Virus record (IMG/VR): IMGVR_UViG_2974784677_000001
From: Thalassavirus gary
Taxonomy: Duplodnaviria; Heunggongvirae; Uroviricota; Caudoviricetes; Demerecviridae
Strand: one strand, 5' to 3'
Length of the DNA stretch: 18,290 bases
Part shown: positions 3,000 through 18,198 of the stretch, piece after piece
Layout of the letters: each line of letters opens with the position of its first letter
How positions within the stretch are numbered: position 1 is the first letter of the stretch
The notes under the pieces: generated by a model
Told to the model about the DNA's origin: nothing
Seen by the model: the letters and a program-made list of their open reading frames with translations, nothing else
Databases searched by the model: none
Made by a program: the position numbers and the translations under genes

Positions 3000-3281
3000 A
3001 TGTCAAACATCCAACAGTTTTTTCGTGTACAAATGATGCTAACTAATGACGCTACTCAAGACTATGATACGTTCTACAGCAACTTTGAAAAGGATTCTCA
3101 ATACTCTGCTGCTAAACGTGAGTTCTTTATCGAGTATATGGGCAACGAATGGTGGGTTGATACTTTCTCTAATCATCTATGCTGTGTAACTGAGTTCAAC
3201 TCTTTCGGAGCAGCACAGGAAGCAGAGCAAGAGGGCTATGAACTTCTATCATCATACGGTTACTGGAAAGAGGAAGAATAA
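3000..3281 (+). CDS. Hypothetical protein
   Basis: ORF track starts at 2979 inside the leader; first ATG after the purine-rich RBS is at 3000 (MSNIQQ...). Confidence 0.75.
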   Translation: MSNIQQFFRVQMMLTNDATQDYDTFYSNFEKDSQYSAAKREFFIEYMGNEWWVDTFSNHLCCVTEFNSFGAAQEAEQEGYELLSSYGYWKEEE

Positions 3282-4431: not shown

Positions 4432-4998
4432 ATGAAATTTGATATGTACTGTGATTGGTCGCCTGCTGCTATTGGTGTTGTTGTGGTTGAGCAGGGTCGT
4501 GGTGTTTACTACAACCGCTTCGAGACTGAATGGCATAACCACAAAAACTCTTGCCAAGGTGAGCTAGAAGCAGTAAATATCTGTTTCAATATTGTAGACG
4601 AGCTAGGTCTTGAAAACGTTACTATTCACACTGACCATGAACCGCTAGTGTTAGCAATTGAACGCAATGCTGTTCCTAAGTGTCGTGGTACTAAAAGCAA
4701 AACTAGTCGTGCCAATAAGATTGAAGTATACCGCAACACAATCCAACGCTTCCTAGATCGTAAAGACGTTAAAGCTGTACATTGTAAATCTCACGCCAAT
4801 AATGTCTTTAACTGTGCTGCTGATGTTCTAGCTCGTAAACAGTCAGAGGATGCAATCATGGGTGACTGGGAGCAGCGTCTTAGGGCAAACAACAAGTTTC
4901 ACACAGCAGCAAAACGTGCAACTGTCACAAACCCAACACTTTGGGACGTGGCACAAGCTTGGTTCATTAATATGGTATATGGAGTGGTAGTATGCTAA
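4432..4998 (+). CDS. rnh: RNase H type 1-like protein
   Basis: Catalytic pattern: YCD (D), GELEAV (E), IHTD (D), KSH..NVFNCAADVLA (H/N/D). Confidence 0.75.
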   Translation: MKFDMYCDWSPAAIGVVVVEQGRGVYYNRFETEWHNHKNSCQGELEAVNICFNIVDELGLENVTIHTDHEPLVLAIERNAVPKCRGTKSKTSRANKIEVYRNTIQRFLDRKDVKAVHCKSHANNVFNCAADVLARKQSEDAIMGDWEQRLRANNKFHTAAKRATVTNPTLWDVAQAWFINMVYGVVVC

Positions 4999-5162
4999 AT
5001 TTTGAAGTATTAGTTAAGTTTGCAATGTTTATGTCTGTAGATATTTTTATTACCCTTTTATCTGGTAGCAATATCATCGGTACTTGTATGGCAGTTATAA
5101 TCTATACTGCTGCGGTCAAGGCACCTTTGGTTGGTAAAGGCGGGTTATTTTCTAAAAAATAG
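4992..5162 (+). CDS. Small membrane protein (56 aa; not in ORF track)
   Basis: MLNFEVLVKFAMFMSVDIFITLLSGSNIIGTCMAVIIYTAAVKAPLVGKGGLFSKK*; GGAG RBS; two hydrophobic stretches. Confidence 0.65.
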   Translation: MLNFEVLVKFAMFMSVDIFITLLSGSNIIGTCMAVIIYTAAVKAPLVGKGGLFSKK

Positions 5163-5164
5163 CG

Positions 5165-5222: not shown

Positions 5223-5645
5223 ATGAACTTTGAAAAACGCCTAGATGCCCTAGTAGCTCAAATGAACGACCTTAAAGATGATTTTCGTACTGCTATTGCA
5301 GACACACAACGTTACTCACTTCGTGAGCGTTGGGAAATGTTTGAAAAAGCACCTTATGAACTAGTTAGTGGTTGTAGCTGCTCTAGTGTTGTTGGGGAAG
5401 ACCTAATAAAAGAACTTCTAGAAATTGAAGGTTCGCTATGTATACACAGCGACTTGTATGTTGATCGTTACCAGACTGTTAATATGCTTAGTGTTGTGGA
5501 GACTATTGTAGAGCACCACGCTGAAAAGAAAGGAGACTACGACTTCGACTTAGCGTTCGAAGAGCTAATGGTTAACCCTACATTTGGTGAGTTCTTAGAA
5601 GAAATTTTAGAGAGTGGTATTCGTGAGTTCCAATTCGATTGGTAA
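5223..5645 (+). CDS. Hypothetical protein (acidic)
   Basis: 140-aa ORF directly behind cassette B2; ends EEILESGIREFQFDW. Confidence 0.85.
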   Translation: MNFEKRLDALVAQMNDLKDDFRTAIADTQRYSLRERWEMFEKAPYELVSGCSCSSVVGEDLIKELLEIEGSLCIHSDLYVDRYQTVNMLSVVETIVEHHAEKKGDYDFDLAFEELMVNPTFGEFLEEILESGIREFQFDW

Positions 5646-7294: not shown

Positions 7295-7615
7295 ATGGTT
7301 AAAGTTATTATTACTTTTGGTTGCTACCTAGAAACATGTCACGAAATGGTTCTTGTTACTAACCGTGACACTCTTACCGAAGCAGAACATGACAAGATTA
7401 ACAGTGAAGTTGTGTACCCGATGGCCATTGAGACTACAGATGGTTGGGTAGGCTCTAACGGCTTCTGTGAAGACCTAGACGATGCTGAAGACATTGAAGA
7501 GGCAGTAGAAGATGAAGCGTTCTACTACTCAGAAGTCTACGACCCTGAGAAACATGATGGGTTCTTGATGGGTTGTCAAGATGAATGGCAAATTATTGAA
7601 GAAATTGAATTATAA
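7295..7615 (+). CDS. Highly acidic hypothetical protein
   Basis: About 29 D/E versus 4 K/R in 106 aa (manual count); directly behind cassette B5. Confidence 0.85.
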   Translation: MVKVIITFGCYLETCHEMVLVTNRDTLTEAEHDKINSEVVYPMAIETTDGWVGSNGFCEDLDDAEDIEEAVEDEAFYYSEVYDPEKHDGFLMGCQDEWQIIEEIEL

Positions 7616-8896: not shown

Positions 8897-9466
8897 ATGA
8901 AAATTACGAGACAAACAATTGCAAGTCCTAAAGAAGTATTACGATTCCTAGCATTATATGCAGGCAAAACACTACCTAACGACCCTTGGACACTAGCAGC
9001 CATTTCAGTATACCTGAAGCCTTTAAAGAATATGCTAGTATTGGATTACGATGGTATAGAAGCTACATTTGGTATTGATAAAGCTTGGATTTGTAAGAAC
9101 TATGAGAAGCGTTCATGGCTACCCCCAGTTGTCCATGAAAAGAAAGCAGACCCTGCTATCACTCATTTCCTAGAGAATAATTTGACAAAAGAGCATGTCA
9201 TTGAGAAGAAACAAGGCTTTAAATATAACTATACTAAGATCGCACTAGATTGCATACAGCAACTAAGCAAAGTTGTTACTCGAACATATATTCGTGATGC
9301 CAACAAGCCTAGAGCATCTGATTTGGCATTTGGGAATGGTTCTCAGCGTGTCCAATATATTACAGAGCTGTTTCTAGAGCTAGACTATGCTGCGCAGCAG
9401 GAACTACTTGCCAAACTTCAGCAAGCTTCACAAGCACCCGCTGAAATTCCTGACACATTAGAATAG
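8897..9466 (+). CDS. Conserved T5-like hypothetical protein bordering the terminal repeat (T5.018-like)
   Basis: MKI..QTIAS..EV.RFL..YA.K.LP.DP and YTKIAL..I.QLSK.VT.TYIR...PR.SDL.FG.G.QRVQ.ITELFLELDY.AQQEL match my recollection of the T5-like ORF next to the terminal repeat; AGGAG RBS. Confidence 0.75.
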   Translation: MKITRQTIASPKEVLRFLALYAGKTLPNDPWTLAAISVYLKPLKNMLVLDYDGIEATFGIDKAWICKNYEKRSWLPPVVHEKKADPAITHFLENNLTKEHVIEKKQGFKYNYTKIALDCIQQLSKVVTRTYIRDANKPRASDLAFGNGSQRVQYITELFLELDYAAQQELLAKLQQASQAPAEIPDTLE

Positions 9467-9490
9467 CCGAGTAAAAAATACAAGCTTTAC

Positions 9491-9519
9491 TTGAAATTTT
9501 CATAGATTCATGATACAAT
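9491..9519 (+). promoter_or_regulatory. sigma70-type promoter with no convincing downstream ORF
   Basis: TTGAAA(9491-9496)-17 bp-TACAAT(9514-9519), with an A-rich upstream tract. Confidence 0.6.
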
Positions 9520-9581
9520 AACTGCATAGCTAGAGAGTTATGAACAACTCACGCTAGCAGAGATAAATCTTATGAATTTTA

Positions 9582-9693
9582 GAGCGTTACAGGGATAGAA
9601 AGAAAATCTAGCAAAGACATTTTCGAGTAACAGCGAAACGAAGTGAAGTCGTAACGAGGTCTTGAATAAGATTCTTTCACAACCCTGTAGCTC
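9582..9693 (+). ncRNA. Candidate structured non-coding RNA
   Basis: Three nested stems: 9582-9594/9683-9693, 9598-9609/9669-9678, 9612-9618/9659-9664; lies downstream of the 9491 promoter. Confidence 0.4.
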
Positions 9694-9858
9694 ACCACTC
9701 ATGATTACGAGGGGGTTCTATTAACTACAGAAAATTACCCCATATGGAAGAACAGATAACGCCCCGCTATCACTCTAGCCTCCTATAGAAACAACTCTAG
9801 TCATTCAAGTTATTACCCTAGCATAGTCTAGGGTTTTATTATATCTATATCCTATCAA

Positions 9859-10366
9859 ATTTGCACCACCTCACGTTAGTGTATCCTCGGCATATCTAGG
9901 ATTAACATTTGCAAAGCAAATGATTCTCCATGTCTTGCCGGAATTGGGGGAAGGACAAAGGGTACAATAGGTTCTATCATTAATAGTAGAAGTCGGATTT
10001 GCACCTGTTCAAGGAGCGACCCCCGAAAAGTCAATTGGTTTTTCCAAATTTCTACCCAAATCCCCCAAAATCTTTAAATCCTGTCTGTTTTGCACCTAGA
10101 CCACCATATAATCCCATATATCTCTTAAAAACTCCATATATCGCATTCGCACCTAGATTTCGCACCCACCCCAATCCTGGCCATGCCTTGCTGCACGCAG
10201 CTGGACTCGGCCAAATTTTTGGAGCAATCGGATTCGCACCTGCAGGCGCCTGACCAAATAGCAGAAAATATAAAACTCAAAATGCATCGAATCGGCACCT
10301 AATTTATAATAGAATTTGCACCTACTGCCATGTAATCATCGAATTTGCACTTGTCGGATTTGCACC
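9859..10366 (+). repeat. Dispersed same-orientation repeats, consensus (G)(G/A)ATT(T/C)GCACC(T), 10 copies
   Basis: GCAC(C/T) cores start at 9863, 10001, 10092, 10149, 10162, 10236, 10295, 10318, 10347, 10362; TCGGATT(T/C)GCACC at 9993, 10228, 10354. Confidence 0.85.
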
Positions 10367-10392
10367 CAGGCGCAGGAGGGACGTCCGGAGCT

Positions 10393-10480
10393 CTATACGT
10401 CTATCCTTCCAGACTTCTATCCATCCAGACTTCTAGCCATCTATCCTTCTATCCATCTAGCCGTCTAGACTTCTATCCTT
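10393..10480 (+). repeat. Tandem array of 11 degenerate 8-mers (CYAKMCDT)
   Basis: ctatacgt ctatcctt ccagactt ctatccat ccagactt ctagccat ctatcctt ctatccat ctagccgt ctagactt ctatcctt. Confidence 0.9.
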
Positions 10481-10556
10481 CCGTATGCCCTACTGTAAAG
10501 GTTTACAGTACACCATTCTGTATAAAATTTTACCTTATGCCGTCCCGTATAAAATA

Positions 10557-10572
10557 TGGCACGATTCTTGCT
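10557..10572 (+). promoter_or_regulatory. sigma54 (RpoN) -24/-12 consensus site
   Basis: TGGCACG-ATTC-TTGCT, exact match to TGGCACG-N4-TTGCW. Confidence 0.65.
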
Positions 10573-10582
10573 TATTAAAAAG

Positions 10583-10653
10583 TTATCCACAACTGTATAT
10601 TTATACATCGCTCTAAAACGCTCTATACAGAGTTATCCACAACCTTATCCACC
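10583..10653 (+). promoter_or_regulatory. DnaA boxes
   Basis: TTATCCACA at 10583-10591 and 10633-10641; TTATCCACC (8/9) at 10645-10653. Confidence 0.75.
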
Positions 10654-10662
10654 GCAAAACCA

Positions 10663-10678
10663 CTGTATATTTATACAG
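10663..10678. promoter_or_regulatory. LexA (SOS) box-like palindrome
   Basis: CTGTATATTTATACAG, 15/16 to CTGTATATATATACAG; a variant ending in T lies at 10593-10608. Confidence 0.6.
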
Positions 10679-10870
10679 GGCTTATGTCGCAGCATATTAT
10701 TTCGAATACCGTTTCTAGCGCCTCCTAGCCTCACCACGACGTTTTAAGCCTTTTAGGGTACTATGGCCTACCCTATCCTACACGCCCATAGCGCCATGTA
10801 ACACTAGCACGACTTTTACGTGCTGCCGGAGCGGCGCGGTTTTACAGAATGGTGTACGGTAAACGGGTAA

Positions 10871-10901
10871 ACAAAACGGCGTCACTTTTCGGTGACGCTG
10901 T
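10871..10901 (-). terminator. Intrinsic terminator of the minus-strand pre-early operon
   Basis: ACGGCGTCAC-TTTTCG-GTGACGCTGT stem (10876-10901), followed on the minus strand by TTTTGTTT; 7 nt past the last stop. Confidence 0.75.
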
Positions 10902-10907
10902 AACAGT

Positions 10908-11144
10908 TTAATTTATTTGGTATTTGGCACGCTCTAGGATCGAAATTGCGTCATCAATTAGATTGCTTGCCGCTTCAGTATCGTGCTCAAACGGGGCGGT
11001 ATTACTGACAGTTAAGTAAATAAACTGTATGGCCGCCGCACTATCAGGATCTTGCTCTAGAGTAGGATCACTCGCTCTAGCTTCATGTAGCAGCCATTTA
11101 ACATGCTCGAAAAAATCCGAATCGACCAAATATTGTTTATCCAT
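10908..11144 (-). CDS. Pre-early hypothetical protein
   Basis: 78-aa ORF, last gene of the minus-strand operon; GGTGG RBS. Confidence 0.75.
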   Translation of the reverse strand: MDKQYLVDSDFFEHVKWLLHEARASDPTLEQDPDSAAAIQFIYLTVSNTAPFEHDTEAASNLIDDAISILERAKYQIN

Positions 11145-11145
11145 T

Positions 11146-11202
11146 TTACACCACCCAAATCATTGCAATTAAAAGTACGATGTCCAGTAAATCAATTTTC
11201 AT
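11146..11202 (-). CDS. Putative 18-aa hydrophobic micropeptide
   Basis: MKIDLLDIVLLIAMIWVV*; ATGA overlap with the upstream stop; stop 1 nt before the next ATG. Confidence 0.5.
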   Translation of the reverse strand: MKIDLLDIVLLIAMIWVV

Positions 11203-11423
11203 CGTGGTTCAAAGTCCCGTACTATTTCTAGAAATTCACGGATTGTAATTCCATCACACCGAATTTCCTCATCGGAGTGTTGAGTATGACGTACTGTAAA
11301 CTTGTCATACTCTACTTGCTCGATTTCATCTACTAGCACACCTTTATAGTATAAACCACGTTGTTTGTGTGCCTCATACACTTGTTGCAAAAATGATACT
11401 AACATTTCACTAGGTCTTAACAT
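11199..11423 (-). CDS. Pre-early hypothetical protein
   Basis: 74-aa ORF with GGAGG RBS. Confidence 0.75.
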   Translation of the reverse strand: MLRPSEMLVSFLQQVYEAHKQRGLYYKGVLVDEIEQVEYDKFTVRHTQHSDEEIRCDGITIREFLEIVRDFEPR

Positions 11424-11425
11424 GG

Positions 11426-11602
11426 TTAAACCTCCACCGGATAAAGTTTGTTTACTACAGCGTACGCCGTACCGTTTTCATCTTGCCACACTTGACCAAA
11501 TTCATTAGTTTCTACATGCTTCAAAATCATAGGCACAATATGACCATTATGCATAATATTGCACATCCAAGTTTGTCCTAGTGTCATAACGTGAACGCTC
11601 AT
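11426..11602 (-). CDS. Pre-early hypothetical protein (58 aa; not in ORF track)
   Basis: MSVHVMTLGQTWMCNIMHNGHIVPMILKHVETNEFGQVWQDENGTAYAVVNKLYPVEV*; GGTGA RBS; ATGA overlap. Confidence 0.7.
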   Translation of the reverse strand: MSVHVMTLGQTWMCNIMHNGHIVPMILKHVETNEFGQVWQDENGTAYAVVNKLYPVEV

Positions 11603-11706
11603 TTTAAAATCACCAAAATTTTATTATAGTCCATACGTACCGTAAAAAACGGTTTGCCGTTTCTAGCAGCCCATAGCAAAGCAGTTGCATAGTTATCAAA
11701 TTCCAT
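11599..11706 (-). CDS. Pre-early small protein (35 aa; not in ORF track)
   Basis: MEFDNYATALLWAARNGKPFFTVRMDYNKILVILK*; starts 1 nt after the upstream stop. Confidence 0.55.
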   Translation of the reverse strand: MEFDNYATALLWAARNGKPFFTVRMDYNKILVILK

Positions 11707-11707
11707 A

Positions 11708-11938
11708 CTAATAATGTGTCGGTAGGTTAAGTCTTAACAATCCATTGCGAACACCAAAACATAGGTGCTTAGATTCTACAGGTTCAAGCTCGCAAGGGTA
11801 GCACATAAAAGACTCACCGCAAAAAACATACGGGGATACTACAGAAATATAACTCCCGTCAATGGCTACAATAACACCACATTTGCCGTTAGTATCTTTG
11901 CAGCGACCTTTTACTTTTACAATTTGGTTAACTTTCAT
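11708..11938 (-). CDS. Pre-early hypothetical protein (KOW/SH3-like N-terminus possible)
   Basis: MKVNQIVKVKGRCKDTNGKCGVIVAIDG resembles a KOW-type beta motif; GGAG RBS. Confidence 0.7.
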   Translation of the reverse strand: MKVNQIVKVKGRCKDTNGKCGVIVAIDGSYISVVSPYVFCGESFMCYPCELEPVESKHLCFGVRNGLLRLNLPTHY

Positions 11939-12009
11939 TTAAGGGTACTCCGTAGGGTAAAGGGTACGTATGCCGTACCCTAAAGCCGTTAACACAATGA
12001 TTACACTAA

Positions 12010-12312
12010 TCATGCCAATTCTCGAATCATATCACGTAATAAATCGGCGTCCGCATCATTGCAGTATATAAACCCGTAACCGTTACCACCGTCATGTGGG
12101 GCAACTTCTTTTAATACTTGAGATACAGTATGGTGTTTTGCTAGTATGCCTGTTTTTATACAGTGTAGCGTTCGCTTCCCTAGCAAGTCACCAGATTTTT
12201 GTAGTGTGATTTCTCCATCACTCCATAACTGGTACACCATACCGTTTCGTGCTGCTAGGTCGTCGTTGTTAGCAGATACAAATTTTTCTGTTAATTCTGT
12301 AATAGTAATCAT
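12010..12312 (-). CDS. Pre-early hypothetical protein
   Basis: 100-aa ORF with GAGG RBS. Confidence 0.8.
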   Translation of the reverse strand: MITITELTEKFVSANNDDLAARNGMVYQLWSDGEITLQKSGDLLGKRTLHCIKTGILAKHHTVSQVLKEVAPHDGGNGYGFIYCNDADADLLRDMIRELA

Positions 12313-12327
12313 CGCTAATACCTCGTA

Positions 12328-12648
12328 TTATATCCCTAGCCAGCCGTTTTCGAATCGTGCGCCCTCAAAAATAGCCCACCATGTTAACAAGTCAGCCCTA
12401 GCGTATTGGTACAGCATACCGCCATTAGTCGCGCCATTAGCAAAAGCTATAGCATACGCTAAAACTTTAGCTTTTAACACGTCCTCGACATCATTAAAAA
12501 GGCTGATATTTCGAGTAATTTCGAAATGGTATTCTTTGTTGCTCAAAAAGCATTGAGCCATTTCTAGACGTTTACTCATTGGAGTATCTGCGTTCAGTTG
12601 GTACGCTGTACTGATTTTTGGTTGTTCTAAAAATTGTTGGTATGACAT
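12328..12648 (-). CDS. Pre-early hypothetical protein
   Basis: 106-aa ORF with GAGG RBS, first gene behind the 12692-12720 promoter. Confidence 0.8.
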   Translation of the reverse strand: MSYQQFLEQPKISTAYQLNADTPMSKRLEMAQCFLSNKEYHFEITRNISLFNDVEDVLKAKVLAYAIAFANGATNGGMLYQYARADLLTWWAIFEGARFENGWLGI

Positions 12649-12691
12649 TTTGTTGCCCTCGCTTAAAGCGGTAATTATTGTCTAGGTCTTA

Positions 12692-12720
12692 ATAATACCA
12701 AAACCTAGACATGGTGTAAA
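12692..12720 (-). promoter_or_regulatory. Pre-early sigma70 promoter
   Basis: Minus strand TTTACA-17 bp-TATTAT. Confidence 0.7.
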
Positions 12721-12738
12721 GTGATTTAGGTCACACTT
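12717..12738. promoter_or_regulatory. CRP-like site overlapping the -35
   Basis: TAAAGTGATTTAGGTCACACTT, 17/22 to AAATGTGATCTAGATCACATTT. Confidence 0.45.
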
Positions 12739-13047
12739 TTAAACGGGGTTATAATCAATTTGATCGATACCAATTTCACGCCATACCATAGACTTATCAT
12801 CATAGCCCCAACCGTCTAGAAGCTCAAGAATTGCGCTACGTTCACGGCGGTCATATAAACCCAAGATATGCATCTCATCGTTATAGATAGTTACACCATA
12901 GGCAGGATGAACAACCATAATGATAGATTCATCATTATCAAGATACCATAGAGTTTCACTAGGATCTTCAACTATATTATTTAGCGGTAGGGCGTCCAGT
13001 ATAGTATCTAGACTGAGTAACAAAGTTTTTTCTTTTAGGTTAAACAT
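12739..13047 (-). CDS. Pre-early hypothetical protein (acidic)
   Basis: ORF track frame 12739-13068; ATG 13047 (MFNLK...) follows GGAGG. Confidence 0.75.
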   Translation of the reverse strand: MFNLKEKTLLLSLDTILDALPLNNIVEDPSETLWYLDNDESIIMVVHPAYGVTIYNDEMHILGLYDRRERSAILELLDGWGYDDKSMVWREIGIDQIDYNPV

Positions 13048-13336
13048 TTTTAACAACCTCCGCAACAACTACTTTCACGGGTACTACTTGAGTGCTACTA
13101 TCAATATAGTGGTCGTGGCGTACGTCACCATATTCCGGTAACACCATATTAGTTGTTTTGGGTACTAGTGGCACGAAAAAGATGTCGTTGTCATCTTCAC
13201 TATATACACACACCGCAACTAGAACATTTTTAATATCTAGTTCATCGCCATACCTAACAAAAGCATCCCCAAATTTTAACGTATCCGCTTGGATGCACTC
13301 ATGCTCACTTTTATGATTCTCAACAGTTACAAACAT
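13040..13336 (-). CDS. Pre-early hypothetical protein
   Basis: 98-aa ORF with GGAGA RBS. Confidence 0.8.
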   Translation of the reverse strand: MFVTVENHKSEHECIQADTLKFGDAFVRYGDELDIKNVLVAVCVYSEDDNDIFFVPLVPKTTNMVLPEYGDVRHDHYIDSSTQVVPVKVVVAEVVKNV

Positions 13337-13411
13337 TTAACATCTCCAGTAAGGGTAAAAACCAACCAATAGGGCTAAACAAAACGCTACACTGCAAACT
13401 AGTTCAAGCAT
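13337..13411 (-). CDS. Putative 24-aa hydrophobic micropeptide
   Basis: MLELVCSVAFCLALLVGFYPYWRC*; AGGT RBS; stop abuts the next ATG. Confidence 0.45.
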   Translation of the reverse strand: MLELVCSVAFCLALLVGFYPYWRC

Positions 13412-13521
13412 GTTATACCTACCTTATTAAGTAGTTTATCAAGTGTCGCAGCACTAGCAACAAATTCGCCAGTTTCAATACTGACACACCACCAAATAAC
13501 ATCAAAAAACATACGGTACAT
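13399..13521 (-). CDS. Pre-early small protein (40 aa; not in ORF track)
   Basis: MYRMFFDVIWWCVSIETGEFVASAATLDKLLNKVGITCLN*; GGAGG RBS; first ORF behind the 13551-13579 promoter. Confidence 0.65.
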   Translation of the reverse strand: MYRMFFDVIWWCVSIETGEFVASAATLDKLLNKVGITCLN

Positions 13522-13550
13522 TGTTTCGCCCTCCTATTGGGTAGGACTTA

Positions 13551-13579
13551 ATCATACTAAATCTAGGCCAAAAGTCTAA
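13551..13579 (-). promoter_or_regulatory. Pre-early sigma70 promoter
   Basis: Minus strand TTAGAC-TTTTGGCCTAGATTTAG-TATGAT; homologous to the 14223 and 12692 promoters. Confidence 0.6.
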
Positions 13580-13684
13580 TAACATTTAGCTATATCCACC
13601 AGCAAAACGATGCCCAGGCGTTATAAGCGCTGTAAGCCGTTATAAGAGGTTCTAGCAAAAAGCCTTGTTTTAGTATGCCTTACT

Positions 13685-13851
13685 TGTGTATAACCACTCA
13701 CAACGGATTCTAGAGCCTAGGAACGCCATTCTATATCGGATAAGCTGTGATTTAGTGTAGATAAGATCCGTTTTCCTGTTAGTATGTTGTGGATAACCAG
13801 TAGATATACAGTATTATTAGAACTTGCTAATGTGCATAAGTCTGTGTATAA
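13685..13851 (-). promoter_or_regulatory. Cluster of DnaA boxes (all on the minus strand)
   Basis: TTWTNCACA matches at 13685-13693 (TTATACACA), 13788-13796 (TTATCCACA), 13831-13839 (TTATGCACA), 13843-13851 (TTATACACA); 8/9 match at 13756-13764. Confidence 0.7.
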
Positions 13852-14057
13852 AAAGTTGGCACGAAAATTTCCTAATATATAAATCAAGAAATATTTTGCT
13901 ATATAATATAACTAGAAATTCTTTGACAAGCTCAAAAATCTATGAATCGAGCTATGCACAAAAGTGACTAAATATGCAGTTTTTTAACTAAAAGTGCATA
14001 AACGATTTAAATGAACTCGACTACAGGGTAGGGCTAAAATTGCTTAGAATCGCATAC

Positions 14058-14090
14058 AGAGCGTTTTAGAGCTATGTATAAATATACAGT
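14058..14090 (-). repeat. 33-bp inverted copy of 10592-10624 (32/33 identity), containing a LexA-like box
   Basis: Reverse complement ACTGTATATTTATACATAGCTCTAAAACGCTCT versus ACTGTATATTTATACATCGCTCTAAAACGCTCT. Confidence 0.9.
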
Positions 14091-14101
14091 GGTTTTCAAG
14101 T

Positions 14102-14117
14102 TGGCATGGTTATTGCT
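14102..14117 (+). promoter_or_regulatory. sigma54 (RpoN) -24/-12 consensus site
   Basis: TGGCATG-GTTA-TTGCT with correct GG-N10-GC spacing; a -24-only variant TGGCACG-AAAA-TTTCC lies at 13857-13872. Confidence 0.6.
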
Positions 14118-14222
14118 ACGTGCGCGTTTCTATTTATATTTATAGCCCTAGGTTATATTAGTAATTACTATATTAGAAACGCCTCGATTAATAAAATTTA
14201 TCGTCACGATAAAAACGTTTTG

Positions 14223-14251
14223 TTAGACTATAATCCTAGATTCGCTATTAT
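14223..14251 (+). promoter_or_regulatory. Pre-early promoter P1 of the A2-A1-dmp operon
   Basis: TTAGAC-TATAATCCTAGATTCGC-TATTAT; same family as 13551-13579. Confidence 0.6.
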
Positions 14252-14301
14252 ATACCCATACCGCAACAACACGGCGGGACAGAAAAGCTGAAAAGCTTCT
14301 C

Positions 14302-14351
14302 GAAAAAAGTTGAAAAAAGTTGTTGACACACTAAGCGGCTTTTGAGATACT
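14302..14351 (+). promoter_or_regulatory. Strong pre-early promoter P2 with UP element
   Basis: (GAAAAAAGTT)x2-G-TTGACA(14323-14328)-17 bp-GATACT(14346-14351). Confidence 0.85.
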
Positions 14352-14357
14352 AACAAC

Positions 14358-14382
14358 GTCCCCAAGGGGGCACGCTCTTTAA
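14358..14382 (+). promoter_or_regulatory. boxB-like hairpin plus boxA antitermination-like element
   Basis: GTCCC-CAAG-GGGGC hairpin, then CGCTCTTTAA (14373-14382); rrn boxA is TGCTCTTTAACA and lambda boxA is CGCTCTTA. Confidence 0.5.
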
Positions 14383-14557
14383 GGCAGTAAGACGGAATGC
14401 AGTGATGCATCGAATGCCTAGACAATTTGGAAAATGCGATTTGACCCATTGCTTACTTGATTGGATTGTTTGAGTATTAACCGTTAGCCGATTCATAGCG
14501 AGTCGGTTAACTGAGAAATACTCTCATTTAAAACTAACCTATTAAGAGGAAAATATC

Positions 14558-14995
14558 ATGGCTAAGAAATGGACAGAAGAAATGGCGGAAAAAGCAGCAA
14601 CTCTTTACACTGCTAAACTTGAAGCTGAAGGTAAAGAAGCGGCAGCACATACCGATTTTCTTGATACCATTGCGGTAGAAGTCGAGGCTGTATCAGGTAA
14701 AGCGGTTCGCTCAAAACTAACTGTTATGGGTGTTTACCAAAAACCGGACGCCGTTGCAAGTGTAGCTAAAACGAACACTGTACGTAAAGAACACTATGTA
14801 CGTGCTCTAGCTCATACGCTTGGTTTAGATGCTGATGATTTAGACAGCTTGAAAAACGCTAAAATGTCAGCCCTAGCCGATTTAGCTCAAGCGATTGGTA
14901 TCACTGACATTCAAGCAGCAAGCGCAAAAAATTACGAACCGGATTTAGAAAAGGTTTGTGAAGCTTTCGAAAATGCCCGTGGTCTAGACCTATAA
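14558..14995 (+). CDS. A2: T5-like A2 protein (DNA-binding, second-step transfer)
   Basis: W.EE..., AVRSKLT...YQK, RKEHYVR, DDLDSLKNAK match T5 A2 motifs; position next to A1. Confidence 0.9.
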   Translation: MAKKWTEEMAEKAATLYTAKLEAEGKEAAAHTDFLDTIAVEVEAVSGKAVRSKLTVMGVYQKPDAVASVAKTNTVRKEHYVRALAHTLGLDADDLDSLKNAKMSALADLAQAIGITDIQAASAKNYEPDLEKVCEAFENARGLDL

Positions 14996-15094
14996 CCAAC
15001 GCCTAAACAATTAGGGGGAATTATCCCCCTAATTTACAGTGTAAATTTAAACAAGTTTACACTGTAAATTAACCCATAAATGGAGAGTAAAACA

Positions 15095-15448
15095 ATGGCT
15101 AAGATTAGTATTAAATCACTGTTAAACAACGGCAGCGCAAAACAAGAACTACAAAACAAAGTTGAAAAACTAACAGGTGTTAGTTTTAATTGGCGTCCAA
15201 ATAGCCGTATTTCTGGGCGTACACTTCAAGCCGTCATTGATTTAGCGGAGTATAGAACACCGCTATTCAATGAAAGTGAAATTAATTCACTACGCTATGA
15301 AAACAAAGCAGCAAAAACAGTAGTTATGGGGATGTTGTGTGAAGCTCTAGAAATCAGCGACCTAGAACAACGTAAAGCAATTATGACGATTGCGAGTTGT
15401 TCAAGTGCAGATGATTTTGTTACTAAAGTTCTATTCATGTTTGTATAA
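15095..15448 (+). CDS. Pre-early hypothetical protein between A2 and A1
   Basis: ORF track starts at 15080; ATG 15095 follows GGAGA. Confidence 0.8.
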   Translation: MAKISIKSLLNNGSAKQELQNKVEKLTGVSFNWRPNSRISGRTLQAVIDLAEYRTPLFNESEINSLRYENKAAKTVVMGMLCEALEISDLEQRKAIMTIASCSSADDFVTKVLFMFV

Positions 15449-15522
15449 CGGGACAAAATATTCTAGGGCATTCTAGCGAGTGCCTTAGTTAATATTTTTA
15501 ACCGCAAAAGCGAGTATATACA

Positions 15523-17187
15523 ATGAAACAAGTTAACGAAGTAATCACAGCAAACGCAACGGCAATCATTAAAGCTGCAAAAGGTCTTAATTTTTGGGGC
15601 AAACGCCTAGACTCAAAACGCCGTGAAATTGCTATTGCAATTCGTGATTCTCTTAAAATCACTATCCATTCTAGCGAGCTTATTGATTGGCTAGACGAAA
15701 ACAAGCCAGTCAAACCAGTAAAAGCAAAAAGTCACTCGCAGCAAGCAAAAGCTGACATTGAACCTACTTTTGCAGGTTCTATCAATGGTCGAGATTTTGA
15801 CAACCTAGACGACGGTTTGTATATCTTGACGGCAGGACAGAACAACACAAAACCGCATCCAGTCTTAAATACTCTATTAGCAATTGCTAATGAGCGTGAT
15901 GCAGAGTTCGGAGTTATGCCGATTAAATATACAACCGTGCTACAGGGACGTGAACGCAAAGAGCCTAAATATCACGCAGATATTAAAAAGCATATTCTAG
16001 AGCCTGTAGATACTTGGTTAGGTGGTGAAGGTAACGTGCTACTAGCTAACAGTGCTCAGATTCTCCCAACTGCAAAACAGCCAATTAACGCAGCCGAGCG
16101 ACTAAATACAGGTGAATCATTAACTATTGTTGCTAGTCCTCGTCGCCAGACTAAAACCCTACCACGTCAAAAGAATGGGGCTTTCCGTTGGGTTTATACA
16201 ACAGGTGTTTGTACTCAAATGCATTACACTGACAGCCGAGCAGGGGCAGAAGCAGAAGCAGAACACTGTTTTGGTGGTGTGTTAATTGAAGTTCGAGACG
16301 GGCTAATCAATCACCGCCGTTTAGTAGCTGACGAAAACGGTGTTATTATTGATAACGGTTCGGTGTACTTCCCTGACGGCACTATCAAAGCTTACAATGA
16401 TGTTTTTGAGCAAAAGCCTGTTATCGTGCTAGGTGATTTGCATTGTGAGAAAATGTGCGAAGACTCATTTAACAGAGCATTACGCCAGATTCACAACGAA
16501 AACCCGTCATTGGTAGTTGTTCATGATGCGCTTGATTTTATGAGCCGTAACCACCACAACCGCGAGGACTGGACATTCTTATACCAAATGCAAGACCGTG
16601 CAGTAATCGACGATTTAACCGATGTAATCAATCACCTAAACCAGATTGCAGAATACGCGCCCGTTTTCATTGTTGAATCAAACCATGATTTAGCTCTAGA
16701 TTCTTGGGTACGTGATAATAAATTCGATGTACGCAAAGACCCTAAAAACGCCCGTACATATCACGCTCTAATGCTTGCTTACATTGAAGCGATGGACAAC
16801 GGCGAATTAAACGACCTTGCAAAAATGGATTTAGCATTCAGAGCACTAGCTGACAAGCTACCAGAGTTAAGCGATGATATCGAGTTCGGTAAAATCGACT
16901 CACAACGTCTAGTATTTGGTTATGATGTTTCTATGCATGGTCATGTTGGTACAGGTGGAGCGCGTGGCTCAGCAGTATCATTCAAAAAGATGCGCATTAA
17001 AACTGTAACAGGTCACACACATTCACCTTTTGAAGATAACAATAATATTGTTGTTGGTGTAACTGGCTCTATGGAGATGGGTTATAACAAAGGTGGTACA
17101 ACTTGGGACAGAGCAAACGCAGTTATTTACCCTAACTCAACTCACCAACTACTACCAACCTACCTAATCGGTGAAGCTCAATACTAA
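15523..17187 (+). CDS. A1: T5-like A1 protein (host DNA degradation and second-step transfer; metallophosphoesterase-fold nuclease)
   Basis: 554 aa; NFWGKRL, DWLDENKPVKP, QNNT.PH, GDLH, HDALDFMSRNHHNR, VESNHDLAL, MHGH, GHTHS match T5 A1. Confidence 0.93.
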   Translation: MKQVNEVITANATAIIKAAKGLNFWGKRLDSKRREIAIAIRDSLKITIHSSELIDWLDENKPVKPVKAKSHSQQAKADIEPTFAGSINGRDFDNLDDGLYILTAGQNNTKPHPVLNTLLAIANERDAEFGVMPIKYTTVLQGRERKEPKYHADIKKHILEPVDTWLGGEGNVLLANSAQILPTAKQPINAAERLNTGESLTIVASPRRQTKTLPRQKNGAFRWVYTTGVCTQMHYTDSRAGAEAEAEHCFGGVLIEVRDGLINHRRLVADENGVIIDNGSVYFPDGTIKAYNDVFEQKPVIVLGDLHCEKMCEDSFNRALRQIHNENPSLVVVHDALDFMSRNHHNREDWTFLYQMQDRAVIDDLTDVINHLNQIAEYAPVFIVESNHDLALDSWVRDNKFDVRKDPKNARTYHALMLAYIEAMDNGELNDLAKMDLAFRALADKLPELSDDIEFGKIDSQRLVFGYDVSMHGHVGTGGARGSAVSFKKMRIKTVTGHTHSPFEDNNNIVVGVTGSMEMGYNKGGTTWDRANAVIYPNSTHQLLPTYLIGEAQY

Positions 17188-17252
17188 TTAGTGTTTTATT
17201 AATAGGCTATCAATTGATAGCCTATTGCTGAACCCATTAAGAGAGAAAAGCC

Positions 17253-17474
17253 ATGAAAAGCACACAAATTAAACTCGCAAATGTACTAGCTAGCTACTAC
17301 GGCATGAAAACACAGAACCCTGCCAAAGCTAAAAAACATCTAGTACAGTTTATGAAAAAGCATGAACTAACTATGCTAGACGTACAGAATGCAATGCCTT
17401 TTGCCCGTGTCATTATTCAAAAACGTACTGATGCATTTATGAACGGCAGCACTACAGCACGATTGAACGATTAA
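17253..17474 (+). CDS. Pre-early hypothetical protein (basic)
   Basis: 73-aa ORF with GAGAG RBS, between A1 and dmp. Confidence 0.8.
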   Translation: MKSTQIKLANVLASYYGMKTQNPAKAKKHLVQFMKKHELTMLDVQNAMPFARVIIQKRTDAFMNGSTTARLND

Positions 17475-17559
17475 CATTCACTAGCACATAAACCACGTGG
17501 CGGGCGCAAATGTGATGCCCGTCACACTTTTACTTAACCGCATAAGCGAGTATTTACCA

Positions 17560-18198
17560 ATGAAAAAAGCATACATATTTGACCTAGACGGCACAACAAT
17601 TGATTCTTTTCACCGTGTTGAGCCATGCCTAGATTCACAGGGTAACTTGAATCTAGATAAATATATCAAAGAGGCTTGCACGCCTGAAAAGGTAGCCAAT
17701 GACAAACTGTTGCCACTTGCCGGATACATGCAACAACTAATCAAACAGGGTGAACTTGTTATCATCCTAACAGCTCGTTACATGCTTAATCATGATTATG
17801 TTTACCTACGCCGTAATCAATTGAGAACGCCTATCATTTGCAGCCGTGACCAATTGAGCCGTGTATTTGGTGAAGGTAATGCAGCCCGTATCAGTGCAAT
17901 GTCAGATGCACCATACAAACAACAATGGTTTGAACATCTATTTGCTAGTATGCCACAAGTTACAGAATGGTGTTTCTTTGACGACCACGACGGTATATTA
18001 GAAATGGCTAATTCATTAAAAGGTGTAACAGCTACCGACGCTAAATTGATGAATCAACTGTTAGAAATGCAATGGGCTGACATTTACCGCCAAGGCGAAC
18101 AAGACACCGCCGAGTTGATACAAGACCTAATTGTTGAATGTTCACATCAAGACGTGATTATCAAACCGGAGTGGATTGATGAGCTTTTAGCTGAATAA
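17560..18198 (+). CDS. dmp: Deoxyribonucleoside-5'-monophosphatase (HAD family)
   Basis: FDLDGT.IDSFHRV.PC.DS.GNL, LTARYM, FFDDH match T5 Dmp. The track's GTG 17497 lies in a hairpin, so ATG 17560 is preferred. Confidence 0.9.
   Translation: MKKAYIFDLDGTTIDSFHRVEPCLDSQGNLNLDKYIKEACTPEKVANDKLLPLAGYMQQLIKQGELVIILTARYMLNHDYVYLRRNQLRTPIICSRDQLSRVFGEGNAARISAMSDAPYKQQWFEHLFASMPQVTEWCFFDDHDGILEMANSLKGVTATDAKLMNQLLEMQWADIYRQGEQDTAELIQDLIVECSHQDVIIKPEWIDELLAE

Follow-up and report, generated by a model that had tools for sequence, protein, structure and literature searches.

Sigma-54-type promoter motifs beside the putative injection-stop repeats of Thalassavirus gary and other Vibrio and Aeromonas T5-like phages

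The pre-early DNA of Thalassavirus gary carries two exact sigma-54 (RpoN) -24/-12 motifs, each at the outer edge of one copy of an inverted repeat made up of DnaA boxes and palindromes, and both within the terminal repeat. From sequence comparison we consider it probable that both are genuine, selectively maintained sites for the RpoN holoenzyme of the host. That both serve as cores of enhancer-dependent sigma-54 promoters is the reading which we prefer, tentatively. Two-step DNA injection has its textbook example in the T5-type phages, and we know of no host factor that reads their stop region. The sigma-54 RNA polymerase docks stably and awaits an ATPase.

The motifs and the repeat module

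The window, which is the whole stretch of DNA analyzed, is 18,290 nucleotides long (18.3 kb). The features to which we refer are as follows.

10016 to the right end of the window, no strand: terminal repeat, from its approximate inner boundary
10557..10572, plus strand: site A, TGGCACGATTCTTGCT, which is TGGCACG-ATTC-TTGCT, an exact sigma-54 -24/-12 motif
10583..10682, plus strand: module copy at the injection-stop end, with two DnaA boxes (10583 and 10633) and, at 10645, a variant box, TTATCCACC
10879..10898, minus strand: intrinsic terminator closing the small-gene pre-early operon of the minus strand; site A faces it from 307 nt away
13685..13851, minus strand: four DnaA boxes of the divergent control region (13685, 13788, 13831 and 13843), placed just upstream of site C
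13857..13872, plus strand: remnant of site C, with the -24 half TGGCACG kept and the -12 half lost (TTTCC)
14055..14093, minus strand: inverted module arm (I2) of the divergent control region; its palindrome occupies 14074-14089
14102..14117, plus strand: site B, TGGCATGGTTATTGCT, which is TGGCATG-GTTA-TTGCT, an exact sigma-54 motif
14113..14140, plus strand: sigma-70-like promoter, TTGCTA-16-TATATT, in which the -12 box of site B doubles as -35 hexamer
14323..14351, plus strand: best sigma-70-like promoter for A2-A1-dmp, TTGACA-17-GATACT, with extended TG
14558..18198, plus strand: pre-early operon of A2 (14558-14995), a 122-aa ORF, A1 (15523-17187), a 73-aa ORF and dmp (ending at 18198)

The motif TGGCAYG-N4-TTGCW occurs exactly twice in the window, at 10557 and 14102 and both times on the plus strand, as an earlier note on this DNA had reported. 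Each copy agrees with 12/12 specified consensus bases and has the exact spacing between the -24 GG and the -12 GC. Dinucleotide-preserving shuffles gave a mean of 0.01 matches per window, and 0/200 contained two. Two exact matches against this figure argue for promoter cores. No further site with up to two mismatches and the GG and GC kept was found in the 18.3-kb window. The third copy at 13857, described earlier as a -24 half only, is present and is the decayed homolog of a complete site; it aligns, with a shared AAAAAGT prefix, with complete or near-complete sites in River4 (L008 3956, intact), VF16 and pVp-1.

Site A lies within the terminal repeat, 541 bp from its inner edge. Its GC at 10570-10571 puts the predicted +1 at about 10583, the first base of the DnaA box TTATCCACA, which is where the earlier note had expected it. 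Both sites are non-coding in the window. The description of this region as first-injected DNA holds by homology, with A2, A1 and dmp at 14558-18198 and the terminal-repeat edge at about 10016, mapped from the PhageTerm annotation of VF16 and the starts of the Thalassa, Ceto and River4 records. No demonstration of two-step transfer in Vibrio T5-like phages was found in the literature.

The long-range inverted-repeat arms are located at 10589-10682 and 14055-14118, and include I2, an inverted repeat of 39 nt with 92% complementarity (10589-10627 and 14055-14093). One copy starts 16 nt after site A and the other ends 8 nt before site B, which begins 28 nt past the start of the palindrome at 14074. 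The earlier note had described a 33-bp repeat within 12-20 bp of both sites. Module copy 10583..10682 contains CTGT-N8-ACAG palindromes at 10593 (one mismatch) and 10663 (perfect), and is nearly identical over ~100 bp from Thalassavirus through V. cholerae phage phi3. DnaA boxes together with such palindromes are found in the window, in T5 and in Klebsiella and Pantoea phages.

By its long-range arms, DnaA boxes and palindromes, the module of the window has the layout of an injection-stop inverted repeat of the T5 type. The T5 repeats, IRD'-spacer-IRC' and IRC-spacer-IRD, have paired DnaA boxes (Davison, bioRxiv 10.1101/866236). In both systems two inverted copies lie ~3.2–3.4 kb apart, both copies possess DnaA boxes and the palindrome CTGTATAAATATACAG (in T5 at L014 6213 and 9411), and one copy is at the non-coding inner end of the terminal repeat, with the other in the divergent pre-early control region. 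Window 10583..10682 has the IRD'-spacer-IRC' layout, and 14055..14093 corresponds to IRC-spacer-IRD. The two systems differ in that T5 and seven enterobacterial relatives lack the sigma-54 motif, whereas the Vibrio and Aeromonas phages have one at the edge of each copy. Davison's preprint, which covers 25 phages, makes no mention of sigma factors or Vibrio phages (bioRxiv 10.1101/866236).

Distribution, conservation and turnover

Ten Vibrio and one Aeromonas T5-like genomes together contain 27 distinct exact matches (2–4 per genome), all located in the pre-early region, 0.9–5.6 kb upstream of A1. No exact motif was present in the remaining ~105–120 kb of each of these 11 genomes, or anywhere in eight enterobacterial T5-like genomes, including T5, and the reversed-pattern control gave 0 matches in all whole-genome scans; these scans covered the whole records of the relatives, and the window itself was scanned over its 18.3 kb. 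The confinement of the sites, with the empty control and the empty enterobacterial genomes, again argues for promoter cores, and since the Vibrio and Aeromonas relatives keep the sites only in pre-early DNA, the sites appear to be under selection. They are kept across at least six phage lineages, which together with their absence elsewhere in the relatives' genomes supports the presence of real, selected sigma-54 sites beside the DnaA-box/palindrome repeats. Two of the outcomes that the earlier note had named as refuting its finding, a lack of conservation and similar hits throughout the genome, were looked for in the relatives and did not occur. On this genomic comparison, the motifs were added specifically in the lineages of the Vibrio and Aeromonas T5-like phages. 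Site B is missing from AG74, and the divergent region of Ceto contains neither B nor C, so that some lineages can dispense with these sites.

In 16 phages, among them Aeromonas phage AhP_Mru1, the homologous place is occupied by site A. Across these 16, substitutions were observed at 0/9 positions in TGGCA and TTGC, 4/4 in the spacer and 11/12 in the flanks (Fisher 5e-6); in site B, 1/9 core positions vary versus 9/16 others. This distribution fits purifying selection on the bases which sigma-54 would read, with the spacer free. An invariant core with variable spacer and flanks is what a sigma-54 reading predicts, and we count it in favor of promoter cores, as we do the apparent turnover of sites while one complete site stays. 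In VspSw_1 and PG07, for example, the ancestral site A is without its GC and a new exact site adjoins it. The 28-nt offset between palindrome and site B is repeated in the distant Vibrio phage D239 (L032 6899/6927). Further sites in relatives, C' in VF16, pVp-1, PG07 and VspSw_1 and one at 8930 in phi3, lie in the divergent control region and are aimed at the small-gene operon. Pairs of sites are situated face to face in VF16, pVp-1 and D239, and a T-rich run precedes the GC in several sites.

We regard it as highly improbable that the motifs are functionless, either conserved through the surrounding repeat or derived from cassettes of ribosome site and start codon on the opposite strand. VspSw_1 sites L021 5149 and 5373 are indeed the reverse complement of GGAGCAATAATC-ATG-CCA gene starts, and these extra matches may be by-products of translation-start cassettes, which also weakens the promoter reading; moreover, site A lies within a ~140-bp block that is conserved as a whole. 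However, inside this block its core is invariant while spacer and flanks vary, River4 and Hades have replaced the palindromes but retained site A, independent sites occur at non-homologous places and always in the pre-early region, and sites A and B of the window do not overlap genes. The composite of a sigma-54 site and a DnaA box, furthermore, was found in just 7/185,579 bacterial genomes. None of the seven is Vibrio or Aeromonas, and mimicry of a host element was rejected.

It is also improbable, if less so, that another DNA-binding protein, such as phage A2 or another host factor, reads the motif and that its likeness to sigma-54 sites is incidental. The sites are embedded in a module of other protein-binding motifs, the PHROG family to which A2 belongs is annotated as DNA-binding protein, GCA-N7-TGC within the motif is partly palindromic, and there are face-to-face pairs. 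Against this, many non-homologous sites agree with the canonical sigma-54 consensus at all 12 specified positions, invariance falls on exactly the bases critical for sigma-54, with exact GG-N10-GC spacing, the motif is asymmetric with a definable orientation, and enterobacterial relatives that encode A2 too lack the motif.

Conditional promoters or docked polymerase

According to the reading as promoter cores, the RpoN holoenzyme would form a closed complex on the DNA as it enters and be fired by an enhancer-binding ATPase of the host, making the sites conditional promoters. From upstream of the sigma-70 promoters, site B, and C and C' in the relatives, would give the two divergent pre-early operons an enhancer-dependent input. 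Transcription from site A would be non-coding and cross the DnaA-box/palindrome module at the injection-stop end, and the face-to-face pairs would send divergent transcripts out of one compact element. The orientation of site B toward A2-A1-dmp and of C' toward the small-gene operon favors such promoters, as do the precedent of Pseudomonas phage YuA (PMC10914365) and the occupancy of sigma-54 promoters in vivo before activation (PMC4591121).

The statement that neither site leads into a credible ORF strictly holds for site A only, since A2-A1-dmp lies 456 nt downstream of site B and is co-oriented with it. No credible ORF was located downstream of site A. A 63-aa ORF starting inside it (10556-10747) was rejected as not conserved, River4 and Hades having ATG GCA TGA there. 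A non-coding RNA 3' of site A is likewise unsupported, with no Rfam match and no conserved structure; the consensus fold of 13 phages is weak (-12 kcal/mol over 399 columns, with a positive covariation term). The predicted transcript of site A runs head-on into the end of the small-gene operon, whose proteins gave no Pfam match and, among PHROGs, matched families of unknown function only. That the most widely conserved site heads no ORF and shows neither a conserved structure nor an Rfam match weakens the case for promoters. So do the sigma-70-like promoters between site B and A2, which are closer to the genes, and the 456-nt distance of site B from A2. The aligned Thalassavirus relatives also have, as we read the alignment, a -10-like element (TATATA/TATATT) after site B.

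A further weakness concerns the activator. No LuxO (TTGCA-N3-TGCAA), NtrC or IHF consensus was located within 9400-14700, and a phage-encoded activator was rejected, no PF00158 match in the genomes of five relatives being above the cut-off (best 14 bits vs a 20.2-bit cut-off). No transcriptome of a Vibrio T5-like phage was found in the literature.

These findings bear on an alternative which takes up the clamp and roadblock reading of the earlier note and which we rate as less likely but live, namely that the holoenzyme binds without transcribing and that a nucleoprotein complex of closed complexes, DnaA and a palindrome-binding protein assembles on both module copies. Such a complex could help to halt the first step of transfer, tether the DNA as it enters or keep transcription of the small-gene operon from reading through into the stop region, and at site B could occlude the overlapping sigma-70 promoter, whose -35 hexamer coincides with the -12 box. 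Site A is non-genic and universally conserved, has a DnaA box at +1 and faces the terminator of a converging operon, and neither an activator site nor a phage activator gene was located. Both sites are on the same edge of the inverted-repeat unit although site B is flipped relative to it, so the feature which they share is their position beside the module. The members of a face-to-face pair cannot be occupied simultaneously, which is unusual for ordinary promoters, and occupancy by inactive holoenzyme is normal for sigma-54 (PMC4591121). On the other hand, a protein inside the cell has no obvious means of halting DNA entry, no known transcript is blocked by site B, and enterobacterial T5-like phages, which have no such sites, achieve transfer in two steps. 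The orientation of sites B and C' is that of promoters for the two operons, the published sigma-54-like promoter of YuA has a mapped start site, and AG74 does without site B, as Ceto does without B and C.

The more specific proposal, that sigma-54 closed complexes beside DnaA and a palindrome-binding protein on both module copies are a structural or latch part of the injection stop or second-step gate in Vibrio and Aeromonas T5-like phages, is doubtful. Titration of sigma-54 by the sites as decoys was rejected as unlikely at the single-copy, first-step stage, there being only 2–4 sites per genome. The rpoN dependence of a Salmonella T5-like phage has been put down to indirect RpoS and glutamine effects (PMC8744999); given this attribution, and the lack of the motif in enterobacterial relatives, we do not take it as evidence here.

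Comparison with known sigma-54 sites and significance

The preferred reading, as promoter cores, agrees with bacterial sigma-54 promoters such as glnAp2 and pspA (TGGCACG-N4-TTGCW) in the exact bipartite match, the GG-N10-GC spacing and the conservation profile. It departs from them in that no activator gene was identified, nor an upstream site for an activator or a site for IHF, that no gene follows site A, and that the phage sites are embedded in the DnaA-box/palindrome repeats of a terminal repeat. Sigma-54 promoters are already known in phage: in one of YuA's sigma-54-like promoter regions, ONT-cappable-seq has mapped a start site (PMC10914365), which agrees with a previous assay by promoter trap (Ceyssens et al. 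2008, as cited in PMC10914365). Like the phages described here, YuA is virulent, lacks its own sigma-54 or activator, and carries promoter sequences of the host sigma-54 type. It is, however, an unrelated siphovirus without two-step injection, whereas the present phages carry their sites on first-step-transfer DNA only, and the most conserved of these sites is non-genic. Among T5-like phages we, like the earlier note, found no report of such sites.

The sites also resemble the intragenic or orphan sigma-54 sites of E. coli, consensus sites in which only the critical bases are conserved (Bonocora et al. 2015, PMC4591121). Many of these have no obvious gene to drive and are bound by transcriptionally inactive holoenzyme, which sits on promoters in vivo before activation (PMC4591121). 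The E. coli sites are chromosomal and mostly intragenic, whereas those of the phages are intergenic and clustered in ~4 kb of pre-early DNA.

Phage use of sigma-54 has so far been studied mainly in YuA, and Vibrio campbellii BB120 with its Thalassavirus phages offers a cultivable pair for such work. An rpoN host, activator mutants and 2-bp site mutants are handles on the dependence of pre-early expression, or of the stop and restart of injection, on host factors. If closed complexes did act as a latch, the host polymerase would here be an ATPase-releasable DNA clamp and not a maker of RNA. The Vibrio and Aeromonas branch of the T5-like phages appears to have added a third recognizable host-protein site to the stop region, and to have placed its sigma-54 sites only on DNA that is present in the cell before any phage protein exists.

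Layout of the pre-early region and its sigma-54 motifs

Sequence searches with positions 10300–14300 of the window matched exclusively Vibrio phages, the closest being the Thalassavirus phages Pontus, Luma, Brizo and Achelous (92–96% identity), members of the subfamily Ermolyevavirinae of the Demerecviridae. The features considered here are as follows.

14558–18198, plus strand: A2, a small ORF, A1 and dmp (deoxynucleoside-5'-monophosphatase), from the annotation of relatives
13521 to 10908, minus strand: run of small genes, function unknown
10898–10879, minus strand: predicted intrinsic terminator closing the small-gene run
10557–10572, plus strand: site A, exact sigma-54 (RpoN) motif
14102–14117, plus strand: site B, exact sigma-54 motif
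10583–10682: copy of the DnaA-box/palindrome module, at the injection-stop end
13685–14093: inverted copy of the module, in the divergent control region
14113–14140: sigma-70-like promoter TTGCTA-16-TATATT, its -35 hexamer being the -12 box of site B

The A2 ORF was assigned to a DNA-binding family by PHROGs. Read in reverse complement, the arrangement is that of the left terminal repeat of T5, in which the dmp-A1-A2 operon is followed by a divergent control region, the small-gene operon and the non-coding injection-stop region; gene order in phage VF16, whose terminal repeat of 7427 bp was set with PhageTerm, is the same as in the window. The end of the VF16 repeat and the starts of the Thalassa, Ceto and River4 records all fall at 9996–10016, which places the terminal repeat between about 10016 and the window's right end. 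By homology with T5, sites A and B are both predicted to lie within the first-entering DNA.

About ten same-strand ATT(T/C)GCACC repeats (9859–10366) span the mapped boundary near 10016; they are kept in all aligned Vibrio relatives and are candidate recognition elements for terminase or the repeat end. An array of 8-bp period (10392–10490; units TCTATCC, TCTAGCC and CCAGACT) has its place taken by an unrelated ATTAG-containing array in seven relatives (Brizo, AG74, River4, Hades, Ceto, VF16 and pVp-1) and by a TTAG-containing one in phi3, with flanks that remain homologous (compared with the phage loci L003, L005 and L008–L012).

Scanning for TGGCAYG-N4-TTGCW returned the two exact matches described in the earlier note, one at 10557 and one at 14102; both are non-coding and on the plus strand, and the window has no others. 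Allowing up to two mismatches with the core GG and GC kept added no further site. The rarity claimed for them was also borne out (mean of 0.01 matches in shuffled sequence; two matches in 0 of 200 shuffles). The repeat reported beside them adjoins both. It measures 39 nt (33 bp in the earlier note), and its inverted, 92% complementary arms (10589–10627 and 14055–14093) start 16 nt after site A and end 8 nt before site B. As had been proposed, the predicted +1 of site A coincides with the DnaA box at 10583. The isolated TGGCACG at 13857 (site C) was likewise found. It shares an AAAAAGT prefix with the River4, VF16 and pVp-1 sites to which it aligns, which are complete or nearly so, and is therefore a decayed third site.

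Distribution and conservation among T5-like phages

Whole records of ten Vibrio phages and one Aeromonas phage were scanned for the motif.

Distinct exact sigma-54 sites per phage
Pontus: 2
Thalassa: 2
Ceto: 2
VF16: 3
phi3: 1
VspSw_1: 4
PG07: 2
pVp-1: 3
River4: 3
D239: 4
Aeromonas AhP_Mru1: 1

All 27 distinct sites lie 0.9–5.6 kb upstream of A1, and records containing both repeat copies have them in both. The remaining ~105–120 kb of each of these genomes contained zero exact sites, and a reversed-pattern control gave zero matches throughout. Eight enterobacterial T5-like genomes (T5, HdH2, chee24, S124, vaffelhjerte, two Klebsiella phages and Pantoea AAS21) were without any match, and the T5 repeat has no sequence within one mismatch of the motif. 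On this whole-record distribution the motif is specific to the Vibrio and Aeromonas branch, and there to pre-early DNA. The earlier note had named similar hits throughout the genome, and lack of conservation, as outcomes that would count against it; in the relatives' records the matches were confined to the pre-early region, and site A was found across lineages, in 16 phages. The observation thus withstood both checks.

Two plus-strand matches in VspSw_1 (5149–5164 and 5373–5388 of its locus, L021) are the reverse complement of GGAGCAATAATC-ATG-CCA-AAA, the ribosome-site/start-codon cassette of two minus-strand small genes, so functionality is not required of every match in every relative. A third copy, at 4677, is flanked by a stop codon on one side and a terminator on the other. 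The 139-kb Shewanella phage 1/40 (NC_025470) has one exact motif at 138010–138025, roughly 1 kb short of the end of its record; an A1-like gene is present and the T5 pre-early layout is absent.

Site A occupies the homologous place in every fetched Vibrio T5-like phage with sequence covering it, a survey spanning Thalassavirus, Cetovirus, Vipunavirus, VF16, the VspSw_1/PG07 group and V. cholerae phage phi3, and is also carried by Aeromonas phage AhP_Mru1. Its strand is constant and it always adjoins a DnaA box, located 3' of the site in all but VspSw_1 and PG07, which have the box directly before it. Across the 16 phages the nine bases of TGGCA and TTGC are invariant, while 4 of 4 spacer and 11 of 12 flanking positions vary (Fisher 5e-6); site B tends the same way (1 of 9 core positions variable versus 9 of 16 others). 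VspSw_1 and PG07 retain the ancestral site A minus its GC, with a new exact site directly abutting it, indicating turnover. In River4 and Hades the palindromes are replaced, and site A and the DnaA boxes are retained. Site B is also found in D239, a phage with just 39% identity in its A1 protein; as in the window, it starts there 28 nt after the palindrome start and ~440 nt upstream of A2. Judged from these sequences, sites A and B are probably true RpoN-holoenzyme sites under selection. That a different protein reads the motif is decidedly improbable, and that the motif is a by-product hardly credible.

The DnaA-box/palindrome module

Sites A and B each lie at the edge of a module made up of DnaA boxes and CTGT-N8-ACAG palindromes. 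In T5 the perfect palindrome CTGTATAAATATACAG occurs with DnaA boxes twice (6213 and 9411 of the T5 locus, L014), inside or immediately next to the IRC-spacer-IRD and IRD'-spacer-IRC' repeats proposed by Davison (bioRxiv 10.1101/866236) as the T5 injection stop signal; the same palindrome is present in Klebsiella and Pantoea phages. Because this layout extends to these phages, the module is family-wide and the sigma-54 site a lineage-specific addition. The preprint, which compared 25 phages, mentions neither sigma factors, nor Vibrio phages, nor LexA.

Among 185,579 bacterial genomes, the composite of a sigma-54 site with a DnaA box 6–12 nt later turned up only seven times, and in no Vibrio or Aeromonas genome; the phage composite is no copy of a host locus.

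The palindromes at 10593–10608, 10663–10678 and 14074–14089 fit the gamma-proteobacterial LexA (SOS) box, and such palindromes are kept in both module copies from T5, Klebsiella and Pantoea phages through to Vibrio phages. A 25-nt inverted repeat (10501–10525 and 10840–10864; 92% complementary, ~315 bp between arms) encloses site A, DnaA boxes and palindromes.

Promoter or docking site

Further sites in relatives bear on orientation. The C' sites of VF16, pVp-1, PG07 and VspSw_1, on the minus strand of the divergent region, are aimed at the small-gene operon, as is the phi3 site at 8930. The A' sites of Ceto, VF16 and pVp-1 lie ~250 bp from site A and face back to it. Face-to-face pairs, with -12 boxes 1–6 nt apart, occur in two distant Vibrio phage lineages.

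VF16 (locus L011), 7462–7499: face-to-face pair
pVp-1 (locus L012), 5255–5292: face-to-face pair
D239 (locus L032), 3055–3087: face-to-face pair

Their predicted transcripts are divergent, without overlap. Two polymerases could not bind such a pair simultaneously, and its arrangement would suit a bidirectional control element.

The sites may be conditionally fired sigma-54 promoters, the likeliest reading but one we hold tentatively. It is favoured by sites B, C and C', which face the two pre-early operons, and by Pseudomonas phage YuA, in which a sigma-54-like promoter region has a mapped start site (PMC10914365). The earlier note instead viewed the sites as clamps, roadblocks or decoys rather than productive promoters. 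Its statement that neither leads into a credible ORF holds for site A, which heads no ORF, but not for site B, which is oriented toward the pre-early operon. A 63-aa frame starting inside site A was rejected, as it is disrupted in River4 and Hades. Docking without productive transcription is viable because sigma-54 holoenzyme can occupy sites while inactive (PMC4591121). Firing is disfavoured by the missing ORF at site A, by the lack of any Rfam family or conserved RNA fold 3' of site A, of LuxO, NtrC or IHF consensus near the sites, and of an activator domain among the genes searched in relatives' genomes, and by sigma-70-like promoters nearer A2 than site B. Overall, docking appears less likely than conditional firing.

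Literature searches, like the earlier note, turned up no published account of sigma-54 sites for T5-like phages, sigma-54 promoters in phages being already known from YuA (PMC10914365). What is new here is the restriction of putative host sigma-54 sites to first-step-transfer DNA and their fusion to the injection-stop module, which offers a way to test the part of the host in T5-type two-step injection.
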